Shown: piece by piece, positions 1 to 32,636 of the stretch
Layout of the letters: each line of letters opens with the position of its first letter
Position numbering within the stretch: the first letter of the stretch is position 1
NCBI GenBank assembly: GCA_963835535.1
Contig: CAWIFL010000002.1
Span: 582,405-646,404, forward strand
Length of the DNA stretch: 64,000 nucleotides
Direction of reading: 5' to 3'
Source of the DNA: an uncultured Gemmatimonadales bacterium
GTDB taxonomy: Bacteria; Gemmatimonadota; Gemmatimonadetes; Gemmatimonadales; JACORV01
Position numbers and translations under genes: made by a program
Notes under the pieces: model-generated
Database searches by the model: none
What the model saw: the letters and a program-made list of their open reading frames with translations, nothing else
What the model was told of the DNA's origin: nothing

Positions 1-556
1 CCCCCTGCACCCGCGCCCCGATCAGCACGAGCTCCACGTGCGGCCAGCGCCGGGCGACCACCGCGACGATGTCGTGCCAGACCGCGCCCTCCGGACTCGT
101 GATCACCCCGATCACCTGCGGGAAGGCGGGAAGACGCCGCTTCCGCGCCGGATCGAGGAGCCCGTCCTTCTCCAGTGCCGCCCGGGCGCGGGCCAGGGCG
201 ATGGCGAAGAAGCCGCCCTGGGTGGTGGCCAGCAGCTCGCGCACCACGAGCTGCAGCTGGCCGCGCTTGGGATCCACCGACAGCTCGCCGCGCGCGAAGA
301 CCTTGAGGCCGTCCTCCGGCGTCGCGGGCACGCGCCGCGCGTCGCTGCGCCACATGACGCAGCGCAGCTGCGCCGACGGGTCCTTCAGCGAGAAGTACCA
401 GTGGCCCGACGGATACGTCTTGAAGTTCGAGATCTCCCCTTCGACCCAGAGCGGCGGCAGGGCGTGCTCGACCACGCGCCGCGCGGCCTCCACCGCCTCG
501 AGGACCGTGTACGGCCGCTCACGCGGCGCCTCGTCCAGCGGGAGGGGGAGCGTCAC
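1..556 (-). CDS. xseA: exodeoxyribonuclease VII large subunit, N-terminal part (gene runs off the left edge)
   Basis: Not in the ORF track because it is truncated. My reverse-strand translation from GTG at 556 reads VTLPLPLDEAPRERPYTVLEAVEAARRVVEHALPPLWVEGEISNFKTYPSGHWYFSLKDPSAQLRCVMWRSDARR..., the OB-fold N-terminus typical of XseA. It overlaps the folD stop as GTGA. The plus-strand ORFs 38..694 and 69..638 are its antisense shadows. Confidence 0.8.
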   Translation of the reverse strand, partial: MTLPLPLDEAPRERPYTVLEAVEAARRVVEHALPPLWVEGEISNFKTYPSGHWYFSLKDPSAQLRCVMWRSDARRVPATPEDGLKVFARGELSVDPKRGQLQLVVRELLATTQGGFFAIALARARAALEKDGLLDPARKRRLPAFPQVIGVITSPEGAVWHDIVAVVARRWPHVELVLIGARVQG

Positions 557-1434
557 GCGGACTGGCGCGCCGCCTGGACCGTGTTGCGCATCAGCAGGGC
601 GATGGTCATCGGCCCGACCCCGCCGGGCACCGGCGTGATCTTGCTCGCGACCTCCTTCGCCTCGGAGAACTTCACGTCCCCGACCAGGCGGTAGCCCTTT
701 TCCGCCTTCGGGTCCTCGACGCGGTTCACGCCGACGTCGATCACCACCGCGCCGGGACGGATCATGTCGCCGGTGACGACCTCGGGCCGCCCCGCCGCGA
801 CGATCAGGATTTCCCCCTGCCGGGTGATGCCCGCCAGGTCCCGCGTCCCGGTGTGCGCGACGGTGACCGTGGCGTTGGCGCCCTTCTCCTTCTGCATCAG
901 GATGTTGGCCACCGGCCGGCCGACGATGAGCGAGCGGCCCACGACGACCACGTGCTTGCCGCCCGGGTCCGCGCCGCTCCGGATCAGCAGCTCCTGGACC
1001 CCGGCCGGGGTGCACGGGCGGAAGCCCGTGTGGTCGCCGATCACCAGCTTGCCCACGTTCACGGGGTGGAAGCCGTCCACGTCCTTCTCCGGCATCATCC
1101 GCAGCAGGACCTTCGACGAGTCCATGTGCCCGGGGAGCGGGAGCTGGACCAGGATGCCGTGCACGGCCCGGTCCGCGTTCAGCCGGTCGAGGAGGGCGAG
1201 GAGCTCGCGCTCCGGCGTGTCGGCGGGCAGACGGATGGTGTCCGACTTCATCCCCAGCTCGTCGGCGGCCTTGCCCTTCATCCGCACGTAGACGTGGCTG
1301 GCGGGATCCTCGCCGACCAGCACGACCGTGAGGCCGGGAACGACGCCGCGCTTCCGCAGTTCGGCCACTTCGGCCTTCAGCTCCTCGCGGATCTGCTTGC
1401 CGATGGCCGTGCCATCGATGATGCTGGCGCTCAT
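553..1434 (-). CDS. folD: bifunctional methylenetetrahydrofolate dehydrogenase/cyclohydrolase
   Basis: ORF 553..1473 shows the FolD pattern throughout (VGEDPASHVYVRMKGK, GILVQLPLP, PCTPAGV, VVVGRSLIVGRPVA, TPVPGGVGPMT). I chose ATG at 1434 (MSASIIDG) over the upstream TTG at 1473. Confidence 0.95.
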   Translation of the reverse strand: MSASIIDGTAIGKQIREELKAEVAELRKRGVVPGLTVVLVGEDPASHVYVRMKGKAADELGMKSDTIRLPADTPERELLALLDRLNADRAVHGILVQLPLPGHMDSSKVLLRMMPEKDVDGFHPVNVGKLVIGDHTGFRPCTPAGVQELLIRSGADPGGKHVVVVGRSLIVGRPVANILMQKEKGANATVTVAHTGTRDLAGITRQGEILIVAAGRPEVVTGDMIRPGAVVIDVGVNRVEDPKAEKGYRLVGDVKFSEAKEVASKITPVPGGVGPMTIALLMRNTVQAARQSA

Positions 1435-1451
1435 TGGTCCTCGTCCCAAAG

Positions 1452-1613
1452 GCGTGAGAAGTGAGAAGAACAAGTGAGACGTGAGAGGGTGAACGGCGTG
1501 AGAGGTGAGCCGGGAAAGGCGTGAGACGGGACGTTCCCTCTCACGCAGGTCGCCCTCTCACTTCTCACGCAGTAGCCCTCTCACCTCTCACCGGTTCGTC
1601 TCACCTCTCACGC
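1452..1613. repeat. 162-nt modular inverted repeat: four direct copies of GCGTGAGAnGTGAGA followed by four inverted copies (TCTCACnTCTCACGC)
   Basis: Read directly from the rny-folD spacer. Hand pairing of arm modules gives 14/15, 15/16 and 13/14 matches. The inner stem is 12 bp with one bulge (1519-1531 against 1535-1546). Confidence 0.85.
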
Positions 1614-1616
1614 ATT

Positions 1617-3203
1617 TCACTTGGCAAACTCCACCGCCCTCGTCTCCCGGATCACGACCACCCGGATCTGCCCGGGATACTGCAACTCGCCCTCGATCTT
1701 GCGCGCGATCTCCTCGGCCAGCGCGTTCGCGCGGTCATCGTCCACGACGTCCGGCGTCACCATGATGCGGATCTCGCGGCCGGCCTGGATCGCGAAGACC
1801 TTCTCGACGCCCTGGAAGCCCGACGCGATCTCCTCGAGCTTGGTGAGCCGCTTCACGTAGCTCTCGAACGCCTCGCGGCGCGCGCCGGGCCGGGAGCCCG
1901 AGACCGCGTCGGCGGCCTGCACGATCACCGAGATCGGCGTCTCGTGCGGCACGTCGTCGTGGTGCGCGGCGATGCAGTTGATCACCACCGGCGGCTCGCC
2001 GTACTTGGTCGCCACCTCGACGCCGAGCTGGACGTGCGTGCCCTCGCTCTCGTGCGTGAGCACCTTGCCGATGTCGTGGAGCAGCGCGCCGCGCTTCGCG
2101 AGCGCCACGTCGAGCTTCAGCTCGGCGGCCATGATCCCGGCCAGCCAGGCCACCTCCTTCGAGTGCTTCAGCATGTTCTGGCCGTACGAGGTCCGGAACC
2201 GCATCCGCCCGACCAGCTTGATCATCTCGGGGTGCAGGCCGTGGATGCCGACCTCGTACGCCGCCTGCTCGCCGGCCTCCTGGATCTGCTGGTCCACGTC
2301 GGCCTGGGCCTTCTTGACGACGTCCTCGATCCGCCCGGGATGGATGCGGCCGTCGCTGATCAGCCGTTCCAGGGCGAGGCGCGCCACCTCGCGGCGCACC
2401 GGATCGAAGCACGAGACGATCACGGTGTCGGGCGTGTCGTCGATGACCACGTCCACGCCGGTCGCGGTCTCGAACGCGCGGATGTTGCGGCCCTCGCGCC
2501 CGATGATCCGCCCCTTCATCTCGTCGTTGGGCAGGGTGACCGTCGCGACCGTGCTCTCGGCGGTGTGGTCGGCCGCGATGCGCTGGATGGCGAGGGCCAC
2601 GATCTTCTTCCCCTCGCGATCGGCGTCGCGCTTCGCCTGCTCCCGCAGGTTCCGCACGAGCGCGGCGGCCTCGGACCTGGCCTCCTCCTCGATCGAGCGG
2701 ACCAGCTCCTTCTTGGCGTCCGCCGCCGACAGCCCCGCGACCGCCTCGAGCCGGCGCTTCCGGTCGGCGATCAGCGTCTGCAGCTCCGCGTCCCGCGCCT
2801 GGACCCGCTGCTCGGACTTGCCCAGCTCTCCGATCCTCGTCTCGAGCTCCCTGTCCCGCCGGTCCAGGACCTGGAGCTTCTTCTCGAGCCCGTCCTCCCG
2901 CTCCTCGAGGCGCCGCTCGATGCGGTCGATCTCCTCGCGCCGGCGGCCGACTTCGACCTCCCACGCCTCGCGGGCCTTCGCCAGCTCTTCCTTGCCGGAG
3001 AGGAGCAACGTGTTGCGGAAGGCCTCGGCGTTGGTCCGGGCGTCCGCGAGTATGCGTTCGGCGAGCGCCTCGGCGGTCGCCTTTGCGCGCACCGCCCTGC
3101 GCCGCTCCACCCAAACGCCGATGAAGAAGAAAGCGAGCCCCGCCCCCGTCCCCGTCGCCCCGATGGCCACGAGGAGGGCCGCAAAGCTGAAAGCCGTCGT
3201 CAT
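1617..3203 (-). CDS. rny: ribonuclease Y
   Basis: 528-aa ORF with an N-terminal TM helix, a long coiled coil, a KH motif ([15 protein letters not shown]) and an HD domain (LLHDIGK ... AAHHDD). Confidence 0.95.
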
Positions 3204-3301
3204 ATGACCACTCCGGCGGTCGCCCGCCTCGAGTGATGCCGGATATCAGAGTTCGTGAACTGCGCCGCTAAGTTACGACCGGAGGGAGCCCGGGGACAAG
3301 T

Positions 3302-31589: not shown

Positions 31590-32636
31590 TCATCGGGCGC
31601 GCTCCAGGGAAACGCGGGCCTCCAGGTGGCCCACTTCCTCGCCCAAGGTGTTCTTGATCCGCGGCGAACGGAAGGAGTCCGCCACGCGCACGGCGCCGGG
31701 CGCCAGGATCTCCAGGAAGGCGAGCAGGGCCGGCCGCGCGGCATCCATGTCGCCGTCCTCCACCTTCATCGCCAGGCCGAGGCGCGCGCCCGGAAGCGCC
31801 GCGCAGTAGACGCCGTCGGCGCCGACCTTGGTGATGACCGCGCCGCGGGAGGAAGCGATGACTTCGGTGCAGAGGCGGCCGGTGCCGGCGATCAGGAATG
31901 GCTCTGCAGTCACGGCGCGGATGACACGGAGGGCCGCGCGGGAGGGGTTAGGGGCTAGGGAGTAAGGATTAGGGCCCGCCGCGCCGACTTCCCTAACCCC
32001 TAACCCCTCACCCCTAGCCCCTAGTCGTGCATACGCCAGCGCCATGTTGCGCAGAGGCAGCGCGTAGGAGACCACGCCGCACCCATCCGTGCCCTGCCCG
32101 ATCTTGTCTTCGGCCACGCCCGTCCACGCCGCCACTTCCTCGAGCAGGCGCCGCTGGACCGGATGCTCCGCCTTCCGGTAGTTCGCCGTCGGCCAGCCGT
32201 GATGGCGCGCGAGCGCGAGCATCGCGGCGTGCTTCCCCGAGCAGTTGCTGTGGAGCTTGCGCGGCTTCTCACCGCGGCCGGCCATCTCGCGCGCGATGGT
32301 GGGCGAGAGCGACGGATGGGGGCCGCATTCCAGGTCCTGCTCCGCGCAGCCGGCTTTCTCGAGCAGGCTCTGGGCGACGGCGAGGTGGCGCGGCTCCCCG
32401 TTGTGCGAGGCGCAGGCGAGCGCGATCTCGGCGTCCGTAATGCCGAGCGCGTCGGCGCCGCCCTCCTCGATCAGTGGCAGGACCTGGATCAGCTTGGCGC
32501 ACGAGCGCCAGTACGTCACCAGATCGCTGTCGCCCGTCGCGCTCACGAGCCTTCCGTCCGCATCCACGACGGCGGCGGAAACCCGATGGCGCGACTCGAC
32601 AATGTGGCCGCGGATGGCGTCTACGGTGGATGTCAC
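31590..32636 (-). CDS. asparaginase II family protein (PF06089-like) carrying an in-frame repeat insertion
   Basis: 348 aa: RSCAKLIQVLP, ASHNGEPRH, SNCSGKHAAML, GTDGCGV, TKVGADGVY, LAMKVEDG. Confidence 0.85.
   Translation of the reverse strand: MTSTVDAIRGHIVESRHRVSAAVVDADGRLVSATGDSDLVTYWRSCAKLIQVLPLIEEGGADALGITDAEIALACASHNGEPRHLAVAQSLLEKAGCAEQDLECGPHPSLSPTIAREMAGRGEKPRKLHSNCSGKHAAMLALARHHGWPTANYRKAEHPVQRRLLEEVAAWTGVAEDKIGQGTDGCGVVSYALPLRNMALAYARLGARGEGLGVREVGAAGPNPYSLAPNPSRAALRVIRAVTAEPFLIAGTGRLCTEVIASSRGAVITKVGADGVYCAALPGARLGLAMKVEDGDMDAARPALLAFLEILAPGAVRVADSFRSPRIKNTLGEEVGHLEARVSLERAR
31941..32024. repeat. 84-nt heptamer dyad element (NTAGGGG-type units, 16-nt spacer, inverted units) inside the asparaginase CDS
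   Basis: Left arm 31941-31974 is GGAGGGGTTAGGGGCTAGGGAGTAAGGATTAGGG. Right arm 31991-32024 is CCCTAACCCCTAACCCCTCACCCCTAGCCCCTAG. By hand, 24 of 34 positions are complementary. Confidence 0.9.

Follow-up and report, generated by a model that had tools for sequence, protein, structure and literature searches.

Two decayed heptanucleotide repeat arrays in inverted orientation fill the rny-folD spacer of a Gemmatimonadales bacterium

Introduction

Tandem arrays of seven-nucleotide units are the most over-represented class among the simple-sequence repeats (SSRs) of bacteria (PMC4692102). In Xanthomonas, each genome contains 70-75 pairs of GGGAATC repeats in convergent, inverted orientation; the repeats keep their positions from species to species, vary in length and lie closer to the ORF that neighbours them on the 5' side (PMC4692102). 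Another heptamer, TAACTGA, is known from Beggiatoaceae, Cyanobacteria and Bacteroidetes, and horizontal spread has been proposed for it (MacGregor 2015, PMC4679880). Here we describe a locus at which two heptamer arrays face each other inside an operon of housekeeping genes, in the spacer between rny and folD of an uncultured Gemmatimonadales bacterium.

Heptameric repeats have, to our knowledge, no accepted function as yet. A model of what palindromic spacer DNA can do is offered by the REP elements of enterobacteria: these are imperfect palindromes of 20-40 nt that have a GTAG-type conserved end, occur as hundreds of near-identical copies and are mobilised by RAYT transposase. In the operons of E. 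coli, REP elements act through RNA processing, exonuclease blockage or ribosome stalling. Newbury et al. reportedly found, in 1987, that upstream mRNA is stabilised by REP hairpins, and Liang, Rudd and Deutscher are said to have shown, in 2015, that REPs located at most about 15 nt from a stop codon reduce expression via ribosome stalling.

Results

The window, by which we mean the whole 64-kb stretch of DNA analysed, carries the genes zapA-rny-folD-xseA-xseB in an order that is identical in all relatives compared. The rny ORF matches the Pfam families RNase_Y_N (1.5e-46), HD (2.3e-18) and KH (3.5e-08), and its homologues in Gemmatimonadales are annotated as ribonuclease Y; the folD ORF matches THF_DHG_CYH (1.9e-42) and THF_DHG_CYH_C (2.2e-63). 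Between them lies a spacer of 182 nt (1435-1616), filled by a single repeat element inside a co-directional gene string, just as a preliminary description of this DNA had reported. Since rny and folD are both encoded on the minus strand, the mRNA runs from 1616 to 1435, which was implicit in that description. The features of the locus are the following:

1617-3203, minus strand: rny (RNase Y, 528 aa), upstream gene, stop codon TGA at 1619-1617
1452-1613, no strand assigned: the element, made of two decayed GTGAGAR heptamer arrays in inverted orientation and predicted to form a rod of about 70 bp from either strand
1533-1613, minus strand: mRNA-5' arm, 73% purine in sense, with four GCGTGAGAnGTGAGAGG-type modules (base composition and fold)
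1530-1536, no strand assigned: hairpin apex, with the loop at 1532-1534 (minimum-free-energy folds and the inverted pair)
1452-1532, minus strand: mRNA-3' arm, 78% pyrimidine in sense, with four YTCTCAC-type modules
1438-1447, minus strand: folD ribosome-binding region GGGACGAGGA, with GAGGA 3 nt 5' of the ATG (sequence reading)
553-1434, minus strand: folD (293 aa), downstream gene, ATG at 1434-1432

Read on the plus strand, the left half of the element carries four direct modules (1448-1465, 1468-1485, 1492-1509 and 1515-1532), spaced 20, 24 and 23 nt from start to start, and the right half carries inverted modules at about 1537-1547, 1553-1571, 1576-1594 and 1596-1614. Sequence reading and a repeat finder thus both recover what was originally noted at 1452-1613, four direct GCGTGAGAnGTGAGAGG modules and as many inverted ones. 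Within the 64-kb window, GTGAGANGTGAGA occurs six times when at most one mismatch is allowed, and all six occurrences fall within the element (0.21 expected by chance). The nested pairings proposed earlier could be followed by direct reading from the centre outward: 1519-1531 with 1535-1546 (12 bp), 1496-1509 with 1555-1570 (13/14), 1474-1489 with 1576-1591 (15/16) and 1452-1466 with 1599-1613 (14/15). So could an alternative register with the repeat finder, in which 1452-1466 is 100% complementary to 1556-1570. On both strands, the very long segmented hairpin that these pairings imply is recovered as a predicted rod of about 70 bp: the segment 1437-1630 folds at -116.6 kcal/mol on the minus strand (z = -11.3) and at -115.4 kcal/mol on the plus strand (z = -11.1), a stability that none of 200 shuffles matched. 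The same window contains a second heptamer palindrome, which lies in frame inside a gene and is translated.

The predicted hairpin is closely fitted between the two genes. Its stem begins 3 nt past the rny stop codon and ends at 1452, so that the folD ribosome-binding region lies outside it; the element stops about 18 nt short of the folD ATG, and the folD Shine-Dalgarno (SD) sequence and ATG lie 10-18 nt from the stem. By joining its own two ends, the rod would leave about 20 unpaired nt, a length close to that of the spacers (22-57 nt) in relatives that are free of the element. The mRNA-5' arm holds seven TGA codons distributed over all three frames (first bases 1610, 1603, 1590, 1583, 1567, 1560 and 1543). 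The mRNA-3' arm has no stop codon and almost no G, and neither ATG nor GTG occurs from 1543 to the folD ATG at 1434.

The repeat itself is shorter than its modules. TRF detects a period of 7 at 1454-1486 (4.9 copies) and at 1577-1611 (5.1 copies), as well as a period of 23; the 15-nt module by which the element was initially described is therefore a genuine repeat module, not the basic unit, being a doublet of the 7-nt GTGAGAR. With period 7 in both arms, the whole element is a decayed inverted pair of heptanucleotide SSR arrays, that is, two degenerate GTGAGAR tandem arrays in convergent orientation. Its higher-order period of 20-24 nt arises from GTGAGAN doublets separated by fillers of 6-10 nt. 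Across 120 fetched loci, the gaps from one GTGAG to the next are 7, 14, 21, 28 and 35 nt; Gemmatimonadota show an additional class of 13-nt gaps, which corresponds to a 20-nt higher-order unit (7 + 13), and one of their loci (L092) consists of four direct 20-nt units.

These properties place the element among the bacterial intergenic heptameric long SSRs, a class that has already been described: its 7-nt units run head to tail, it is intergenic and near ORF ends (as are the arrays across the fetched loci), and in close relatives its position is fixed and its length and sequence vary. The convergent inverted pairing of its two arrays is that of the Xanthomonas subclass. It shares with the Xanthomonas GGGAATC and Nostoc GGGGAYT repeats (Rehm et al. 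2015, PMC4692102) the purine- or G-rich tandem unit, the intergenic location 0-50 nt from ORF ends, the frequent convergent pairs capable of forming stem-loops, the kept position with variable length and sequence, and the occurrence between co-directional genes, operon interiors included. It differs from them in its unit (GTGAGAR) and host (Gemmatimonadales), in its decay into 20-24-nt modules and in the rod of about 70 bp that takes up the whole spacer. The G-quadruplex idea (at least three Gs per unit in at least four units) is not transferable either, because GTGAGAR has no regular G3 tracts and GGG appears only in some of the fillers. The TAACTGA repeats (PMC4679880) and the cyanobacterial STRR heptamers are similar in that they too are intergenic heptanucleotide tandem arrays beside start or stop codons, with stop codons in the unit, scattered over phyla and with no known mechanism or partner protein; however, most of them consist of one direct array that precedes a start, whereas the element is a balanced inverted pair of a different unit. 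A literature search using the repeat sequence itself returned nothing relevant.

Comparison of relatives reveals rapid turnover at a constant site. In nine in-group lineages the rny-folD spacer measures 182, 176, 172, 169, 197, 130, 141, 68 and 22 nt, and seven of the nine retain a balanced long palindrome (130-197 nt) made of GTGAGAR-type or variant units. The sequence of the palindrome changes much faster than synonymous sites while its position is conserved: the window and its relative L121 are 98.6% identical at the nucleotide level in rny and 97.8% in folD (96-97% at third codon positions), yet only 69-80% identical, with many indels, in the spacer between them. On a protein tree, L122 (68 nt, a mini-hairpin) and L303 (22 nt) fall at separate places among relatives with long elements, each representing a contraction of its own; because these two lineages have reduced or lost it, the element is dispensable. 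Absence from close relatives, which the preliminary description had named as an observation that would count against the element, is thus seen in part: L303 and L122 have spacers of 22 and 68 nt and the rest keep the element. Out-group spacers between rny and folD measure 42-57 nt and lack the GTGAG palindrome. The out-group genomes carry other repeat palindromes in the zapA-rny spacer, with the zapA stop on one side and a conserved rny leader on the other, so that some long hairpin flanks rny in most lineages.

Covariation analysis on a multiple alignment of the orthologous spacers was rejected, the columns not being orthologous and the alignment being driven by the repeat motif; the folding of chimeric arms was used instead. 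Chimeric hairpins, in which the left and right arms come from two different relatives, are nearly as good at folding as native ones. In L129 and L304, both arms bear matching variant units (GTGATG/GTGACG with CATCAC/GTCAC), and in L129 the native arms pair more strongly than the chimeras. Taken together, the matched variants and the native advantage of L129 indicate that the arms co-evolve, via selection or via arm-to-arm conversion.

Beyond this operon, (GTGAGAR)n arrays turned up at more than 120 loci in a pattern scan of genome contigs, the hosts being Gemmatimonadota, Bacteroidota, Verrucomicrobiota, Acidobacteriota, Planctomycetota and some Proteobacteria. Other heptamer arrays are also found at these loci, and period 7 predominates, with 174 runs as compared with 18 of period 8 in what is an ascertainment-biased sample. 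When the whole window was compared by BLAST with 120 pattern-derived loci, matches were confined to the element and there was zero synteny; other Gemmatimonadales loci are 69-77% identical to the element, at the level of the repeat motif only. Clustering of the ORFs within 2.5 kb of the arrays brought out no recurrent partner gene (even the best cluster reached 7 loci out of the 120). In viral contigs, GTGAGAN arrays occur at 21 loci, compared with 27, 107 and 19 for three composition-matched control heptamers. Because the controls are about as common or commoner, the GTGAGAR unit is not special, and we discarded the idea of a specially conserved cross-phylum motif (an SD/anti-SD mimic or a protein site). 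The abundance of the controls also argues for an independent origin of GTGAGAR arrays, as opposed to the horizontal spread proposed for TAACTGA. Two loci that are otherwise unrelated (L050 and L076) have in common a near-identical core of about 52 nt, non-repeat apex included, which implies that at least some such palindromes have been copied between sites. Exact scans of metagenome contigs gave zero matches to the apex of the window and zero to the L050/L076 core.

The arrays are not oriented at random with respect to genes. Using gene calls from our own ORF heuristics, we found 29 pairs among 140 groups of GTGAGA arrays, 28 of them purine-first and 1 the reverse; for all heptamer units, viral loci included, 103 of 112 pairs are purine-first and 9 pyrimidine-first. 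Of the two genes that flank a single array, the one 5' of it tends to be the closer (Fisher p = 0.0017). Among arrays at most 30 nt from a gene end, 36 obey and 8 violate the rule that the sense strand is purine-rich past a stop and pyrimidine-rich ahead of a start, and in 38 listed junctions the array starts 1-10 nt past the stop codon. At the locus studied here, the purine-first order means that the stop-rich arm adjoins the rny stop and that the G-poor arm, free of ATG and GTG, adjoins the folD ribosome-binding site.

Discussion

On balance, we favour the view that the element is a tolerated mRNA hairpin of paired heptamer arrays, made by slippage, with an effect that is at most modulatory. 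Replication slippage or unequal exchange would grow, shrink and swap the units of each array. Since every GTGAGAR array can pair with every YTCTCAC array, the hairpin would outlast this turnover without precise compensatory change. The placement statistics suggest that hypermutable arrays may be tolerated beside genes in one polarity only: the purine-rich arm, with TGA in three frames, would have to face a stop codon, and the pyrimidine-rich arm, which is free of ATG and GTG and in which G is too scarce for Shine-Dalgarno-like runs, would have to face a start codon. A purine-first palindrome would satisfy the two conditions together. The weakest step is function: a hairpin of about 70 bp carried by the polycistronic mRNA immediately past the rny stop could be a barrier to 3'->5' decay, a double-stranded substrate of the RNase III type or an obstacle for the terminating ribosome, and it probably modulates expression without being required. 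Set against mere tolerance, seven of nine in-group lineages retain the long palindrome despite hypermutability and bacterial deletion bias, and selection for the hairpin could be at work.

The polarity rule might extend well beyond this operon. It is conceivable, and we put it forward tentatively, that purine-first order is a general law governing the hypermutable heptamer arrays of bacteria and phages alike, and that the GTGAGAR palindromes of Gemmatimonadota, Bacteroidota and Verrucomicrobiota are an undescribed, widespread family of self-insulating spacers looped out of the mRNA. Members of such a family would provide backup stops and tunable hairpins, and could double as bidirectional terminators that lack a U-tract.

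The hairpin may instead be a selected cis-regulatory RNA that sets the expression of rny relative to folD-xseAB-ispA-dxs, by being processed by RNase III or RNase Y, by blocking 3' exonucleases or by stalling the ribosomes that terminate on rny. This is the alternative that we take most seriously, although we think it rather unlikely. It is consistent with a hairpin that is kept in the rny-folD spacer across a clade of about 15% protein divergence despite fast turnover, with the co-varying arms of L129 and L304, and with a stem that extends from 3 nt past the rny stop to just short of the folD SD; the out-group zapA-rny palindromes, which put a long hairpin beside rny in most lineages, point the same way. 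However, the contracted spacers of L303 and L122 are nested among relatives with long elements, and there are zero matches to Rfam families. A G-U test for RNA-level selection, moreover, gave inconsistent differences in stability between sense and antisense (+1.8, +9, +23, -5 and -6 kcal/mol). The pairing is also generic to the repeat motif, so that persistence of the hairpin needs no selection.

Polarity is an attraction of a bidirectional terminator or attenuator without a U-tract, in which the pyrimidine-rich 3' arm would form a weak RNA:DNA hybrid behind a strong hairpin. The purine-first order (103 versus 9) equals that of bidirectional intrinsic terminators, A-rich first and U-rich last; A is modestly enriched upstream of the pairs (+8.6 points) and T downstream of them (+9.7 points); and the out-group palindromes, between the zapA stop and the rny leader, occupy a position typical of terminators. 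Yet hairpin-free single arrays follow the same polarity rule at gene ends, the flanking excess of A and T is weak and may merely reflect decayed repeat units, and five or more Ts in the 8 nt past the stem are seen in just 8 of 90 pairs. At the rny-folD locus itself, the tails GCCUUUGGG and GCAUUUCAC do not provide the GC-rich hairpin plus U-tract of an intrinsic terminator, and a scan of 1200-1900 for sigma-70 promoters and terminators found no consensus on either strand. The element ends about 18 nt from the folD ATG, which leaves no room for a promoter, and full termination would silence folD, xseAB, ispA and dxs. We therefore regard a terminator as improbable here.

Insertion of a non-autonomous mobile element of the MITE/REPIN/BIME type is less probable still. 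The element is palindromic and intergenic, and its presence varies among relatives; L050 and L076 share their near-identical core at unrelated loci; and the second, in-frame palindrome of the window is translated in the manner of Rickettsia palindromic elements. Several observations nevertheless conflict with mobility: the 64-kb window holds a single GTGAGA element, matches at other loci stay at the repeat-motif level (69-77%), and the flanks CCCAAAGGC and GCATTTCAC have no direct repeat and thus no target-site duplication. In addition, no recurrent transposase-like family accompanies the arrays, orthologous copies differ through turnover of units without a clean empty site, and the exact apex sequence is absent from the metagenome contigs scanned. 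Unlike MITEs and Rickettsia palindromic elements, whose palindromic architecture it resembles, the element has no near-identical family among the loci compared, and its arms are simple-sequence DNA and not unique terminal inverted repeats. Enterobacterial REP/BIME sequences resemble it as intercistronic or 3'-UTR palindromes with the potential to form mRNA hairpins; its unit, however, is a 7-nt direct repeat, palindromy exists only in the pair of arrays, and the hallmarks of REPs were not seen in the 64-kb window or at the loci compared. The REP/BIME-like nature suggested in the preliminary description therefore survives as a loose model of how the element could work, plausible for effects on mRNA stability or translation termination, and probably not as family membership, given the one copy in 64 kb, the motif-level matches and the lack of a target-site duplication.

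A double-stranded-DNA protein-binding array, of the iteron or operator kind and with some two helical turns per period, is very improbable: the module spacing of 20-24 nt and the specific 20-nt higher-order unit shown by Gemmatimonadota (7 + 13 nt, as in L092) would suit it, but the spacing is irregular within the element (20/24/23) and different in every relative, units drift to GTGATG and GTGACG, composition-matched heptamers behave alike, and the neighbours are housekeeping genes with no regulator or replication gene associated, so that the iteron-like array once considered for this spacer finds no support. A structured small RNA gene has hardly any credibility, for its very stable fold is offset by the lack of promoter and terminator consensus, by a sequence that is unconserved even at 98.5% protein identity and lost in close relatives, and by Rfam, the check originally suggested, which gave no family at threshold (the whole window yields two tRNAs only at the gathering threshold, and the best models for 1350-1720 at E <= 10 are plant and animal miRNA hairpins, at 60 bits against a gathering threshold of 168).

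The element is thus a further case of poorly understood, fast-changing heptamer spacer DNA, and it is in all probability neither a dedicated RNA gene nor a mobile element nor a protein-binding array. At the rny-folD locus, this identification disposes of an attractive candidate for a new structured RNA, an iteron array or a mobile element, and it illustrates how a rod hairpin of 160 nt in a high-GC operon spacer can be simply a pair of simple-sequence arrays. The regularities found here are testable, namely purine-first polarity (103 versus 9), abutment on stop codons and faster-than-synonymous turnover at a conserved position, and they could explain at which sites arrays are permitted and how arrays affect operon expression. 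Genome annotation is concerned as well: arrays lengthen or shorten ORF calls and can provide the stop codon of a gene. At L076, the array would contribute the final codons of the gene together with its stop.

A paired heptanucleotide repeat between rny and folD

By its RNase Y homologues, the window belongs to Gemmatimonadales. Both genes bordering the element are encoded on the minus strand, so that the mRNA order is rny, the 182-nt spacer and then folD.

1617-3203, minus strand: RNase Y ORF (rny)
553-1434, minus strand: FolD ORF (folD)

The element (1452-1613) agrees with the preliminary description. On the plus strand it consists of four direct GCGTGAGAnGTGAGAGG-type modules, starting 20, 24 and 23 nt apart, followed by four inverted copies. 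Its nested helices of 12, 13/14, 15/16 and 14/15 bp are borne out by direct reading, as is the alternative register in which 1452-1466 is perfectly complementary to 1556-1570. A search of the 64-kb window (G+C about 72%) for the motif GTGAGANGTGAGA (at most one mismatch) returned six sites against 0.21 expected, all six within the element. The region is predicted to fold as RNA at -116.6 kcal/mol (minus strand) and -115.4 kcal/mol (plus strand), with z-scores of about -11 on both strands and no shuffle equally stable. The predicted stem begins 3 nt 3' of the rny stop codon and ends just 5' of the folD Shine-Dalgarno (SD) sequence; the ~20 nt left unpaired outside the rod are similar to what separates the two genes in relatives without the element (22-57 nt). 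Seven TGA codons, which between them fall in all three frames, lie in the mRNA-5' arm, and the mRNA-3' arm lacks ATG or GTG over the ~110 nt preceding the folD ATG.

The feature is real. The preliminary description had its anatomy right and its nature wrong: the element is a pair of heptanucleotide simple-sequence repeat (SSR) arrays, belonging to a known, poorly understood class. Tandem Repeats Finder detects period 7 in both arms, plus period 23; each proposed 15-nt module is a doublet of the heptamer GTGAGAR (complement type YTCTCAC), and the sequence that separates one doublet from the next resembles decayed units. Heptameric SSRs are the over-represented SSR class in many bacteria (earlier work reviewed by Rehm et al., PMC4692102). 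In particular, the GGGAATC repeats of Xanthomonas include 70-75 convergent, stem-loop-capable two-array cases per genome; from species to species the repeats keep their positions and differ widely in length and sequence, and they lie nearer the 5'-neighbouring ORF, whichever way that gene points (Rehm et al., PMC4692102). TAACTGA arrays adjoin start codons in Beggiatoaceae, Cyanobacteria and Bacteroidetes (MacGregor, PMC4679880, also citing the cyanobacterial STRR heptamers). A literature search by repeat sequence found no relevant report of GTGAGA-type repeats.

Scanning one genome per species for two GTGAGAR doublets 4-16 nt apart yielded at least 120 loci. Among the matches listed, most are pure tandem (GTGAGAR)n arrays, the shortest with 4 units and the longest with more than 20, hosted by Gemmatimonadota, Bacteroidota, Verrucomicrobiota, Acidobacteriota, Planctomycetota and scattered Proteobacteria, Clostridia and others, cultured isolates included. 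Successive GTGAG motifs in these listed matches show gaps of 7, 14, 21, 28 and 35 nt, with an extra 13-nt class in Gemmatimonadota (24 cases versus 2 in all other phyla); this class implies a 20-nt higher-order unit, which explains the 20-24-nt period of the window element. This higher-order repeat can be amplified in direct orientation alone, with no inverted array beside it, as in the Gemmatimonadota locus L092:1601-1707, which carries four copies of GTGAGAGGTGAGAGGCGGAC. Composite palindromes occur in Bacteroidota (L024:5930-6196 and L049:633-877): GTGAGAR arrays make up their outer arms and enclose a core of different, likewise repeated hairpin sequence (for example, GTCATCCTGAGCGAAGCGAAGGATC in Hymenobacter and GCGTAGAGTACGCCGCTTCGCC in L049). 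The source window holds one GTGAGA array group per 64 kb and five scanned loci (L078, L049, L075, L016 and L060) hold three or four separate array groups per 8 kb, so that density differs greatly among lineages.

Other heptamer arrays (GTAAGCA, TTGTCAC, GGTATTG and GCCATCG among them) occur at these loci, and period 7 is much commoner than other periods in this ascertainment-biased sample of pattern-derived loci. When viral contigs were scanned for four tandem copies of GTGAGAN and of composition-matched heptamers, GTGAGAN gave 21 loci, GAGAGTN 27, GGATGAN 107 and GTAGGAN 19. Since the controls are about as frequent or more so, the GTGAGA unit is not special; heptamer arrays generally are far above chance frequency.

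Rapid turnover at a fixed position

The rny-folD region was compared in eleven relatives, comprising an in-group (85-99% RNase Y identity) and three out-group genomes; the gene order pheST-zapA-rny-folD-xseAB-ispA-dxs is constant throughout. Each long in-group spacer (176, 172, 169, 197, 130 and 141 nt) is a purine-first palindrome, with the purine-rich arm 5' of the pyrimidine-rich arm, folding at -70 to -112 kcal/mol. Unit-for-unit alignment of the in-group copies is impossible, and in two relatives (L129 and L304) the units have drifted to GTGATG and GTGACG in both arms. Between the window and its relative L121, the flanking genes are 98-99% identical (third codon positions 96-97%) and the spacer just 69-80%, with many indels. 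In close relatives, whose spacer the preliminary description had proposed to compare, the element is nearly lost once (L303, 22 nt: three GTGAG remnants without a pyrimidine arm) and shrunk once (L122, a 68-nt mini-hairpin); the protein tree resolves these as separate contractions nested among long-element relatives. Out-group spacers measure 42-57 nt without a GTGAG palindrome. The element thus originated close to the root of a single clade; it keeps its position and architecture, its sequence changes far more quickly than synonymous sites do, and it is dispensable.

Chimeric hairpins, in which the left arm of one relative was joined to the right arm of another and folded, are nearly as stable as native ones (for example, -98 versus -89 kcal/mol for L121). 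Many registers are open to any GTGAGAR array for pairing with any YTCTCAC array, so that no precise compensatory change is needed. The exception is L129, where pairing is strongest among its own variant units; to that extent the arms do co-evolve, through selection or arm-to-arm copying. Sense RNA showed no consistent stability advantage over antisense, so there is no G-U trace of selection at the RNA level.

Polarity of heptamer arrays

The locus itself is of modest interest; more interesting are three general regularities: purine-first polarity, the closeness of arrays to stop codons, and fast turnover at fixed positions. The polarity statistics use ORF heuristics for the genes, loci chosen by purine-rich patterns and a strand-symmetric classification. 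In the listed loci, 140 array groups comprise 64 GTGAGA-only, 47 TCTCAC-only, 28 GTGAGA-first pairs and 1 reverse pair. For any heptamer unit, viral loci included, 103 inverted pairs among the matches listed are purine-first and 9 are not, most of the nine having units near 50% purine. Single arrays in the listed matches are closer to their 5' neighbouring gene than to the other (Fisher p = 0.0017). Where a listed array comes within 30 nt of a gene end, the sense strand is purine-rich directly after a stop in 24 cases and pyrimidine-rich directly before a start in 12; 8 cases go against this rule. At 38 listed junctions the array starts 1-10 nt past the stop codon, often with an in-frame second TGA next. 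In one scanned locus, two convergent genes run into the GTGAGA arrays and take their last 3-12 codons and stop codons from them (...VMRER* and ...GETRGVRGETAA*):

L076:4847-6031, plus strand: class-V aminotransferase-like gene
L076:6115-7356, minus strand: TyrS-like gene

The only reverse-order pair among the matches listed flanks a ~600-nt membrane-protein gene on the minus strand:

L006:3338-4047: (CTCACTT)10 and (GTGAGAA)6

In the mRNA of this gene, the pyrimidine array would precede the start and the purine array would follow the stop, as the polarity rule has it; pairing between its two UTRs would also be possible.

Every stop codon is a T with two purines after it, so that three tandem copies of a purine-rich heptamer that includes one give stops in all three frames. 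Its complement is free of stops, ATG, GTG and SD-like runs. We infer that hypermutable arrays are tolerated beside genes only as purine after stop and pyrimidine before start. A purine-first pair would meet this rule on both sides, whichever way the neighbouring genes point, and the rod would bring its two ends, at the rny stop and the folD SD, together.

Possible roles and origin

We consider the element to be, probably, a hairpin made by slippage, filtered by polarity and tolerated, with at most a modulatory effect. A selected regulatory hairpin is the nearest alternative, though a rather unlikely one. The geometry, a very stable hairpin straight after a stop inside an operon, would allow REP-like effects: the hairpin could block 3' exonucleases, serve RNase III as a double-stranded substrate or obstruct the terminating ribosome, mechanisms known for E. 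coli REP elements. Seven of the nine in-group lineages have kept the long palindrome, which speaks for some benefit or for a bias towards expansion; that it contracted twice independently speaks for no more than a modulatory role.

No recurring gene family was found among ORFs around the listed loci, no Rfam family matches the element and no promoter or terminator consensus was found at it; nothing thus points to dedicated machinery. A terminator or attenuator lacking a U-tract is improbable, the terminator consensus being absent. A mobile element seems still less probable, even though two palindromes from different Gemmatimonadales species (L050:6317-6403 and L076:6013-6098) are 86% identical over 87 nt and share, between unrelated flanking genes, a nearly identical 52-nt core including a non-repeat apex (AGCCGCGCCGCAGCC). 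This likeness fits pure in-situ evolution poorly and hints that whole palindromes were copied between loci; two metagenome scans for palindrome dispersal, one with this core, returned no matches. A protein-binding array and an sRNA gene are the least plausible readings of all.

Other palindromes and the rny leader

The window contains a second purine-first heptamer palindrome:

31931-32023: (nnTAGGG)x5, 17-nt loop, (CCCTAAC)x5

It lies in frame inside an L-asparaginase II-family gene (31590-32636, minus strand; Pfam PF06089, E = 7e-110). GC3 periodicity has the same phase on either side and collapses within it, and the protein has a ~15-residue insertion at this site relative to PDB 8cly. In this it is like the palindromic elements of Rickettsia, whose translation is likewise in frame with the host gene.

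A leader upstream of rny is conserved in all relatives:

window ~3204-3300, minus strand; L121:3903-4000; L123:3910-4000; L126:700-750

It reads GTAACTTAGC, then TCACTCrGGGCGGnnCGCCGCCGGAGTGnnCATG, with a small GGCGG/CCGCC hairpin immediately 5' of the SD and start codon. It has no Rfam match, and may comprise the rny promoter and a 5'-UTR regulatory hairpin. In the out-group genomes, where the rny-folD element is missing, the next spacer upstream (zapA-rny) contains repeat palindromes of other kinds, all purine- or G-first:

L128:2791-2900: (GGGGGATC)4 then (GATCCCCC)5
L126:288-620: units GCAGACGC/GCGTCTGC
L127:2682-2900: units GGCGCAGT/ACTGCGCC
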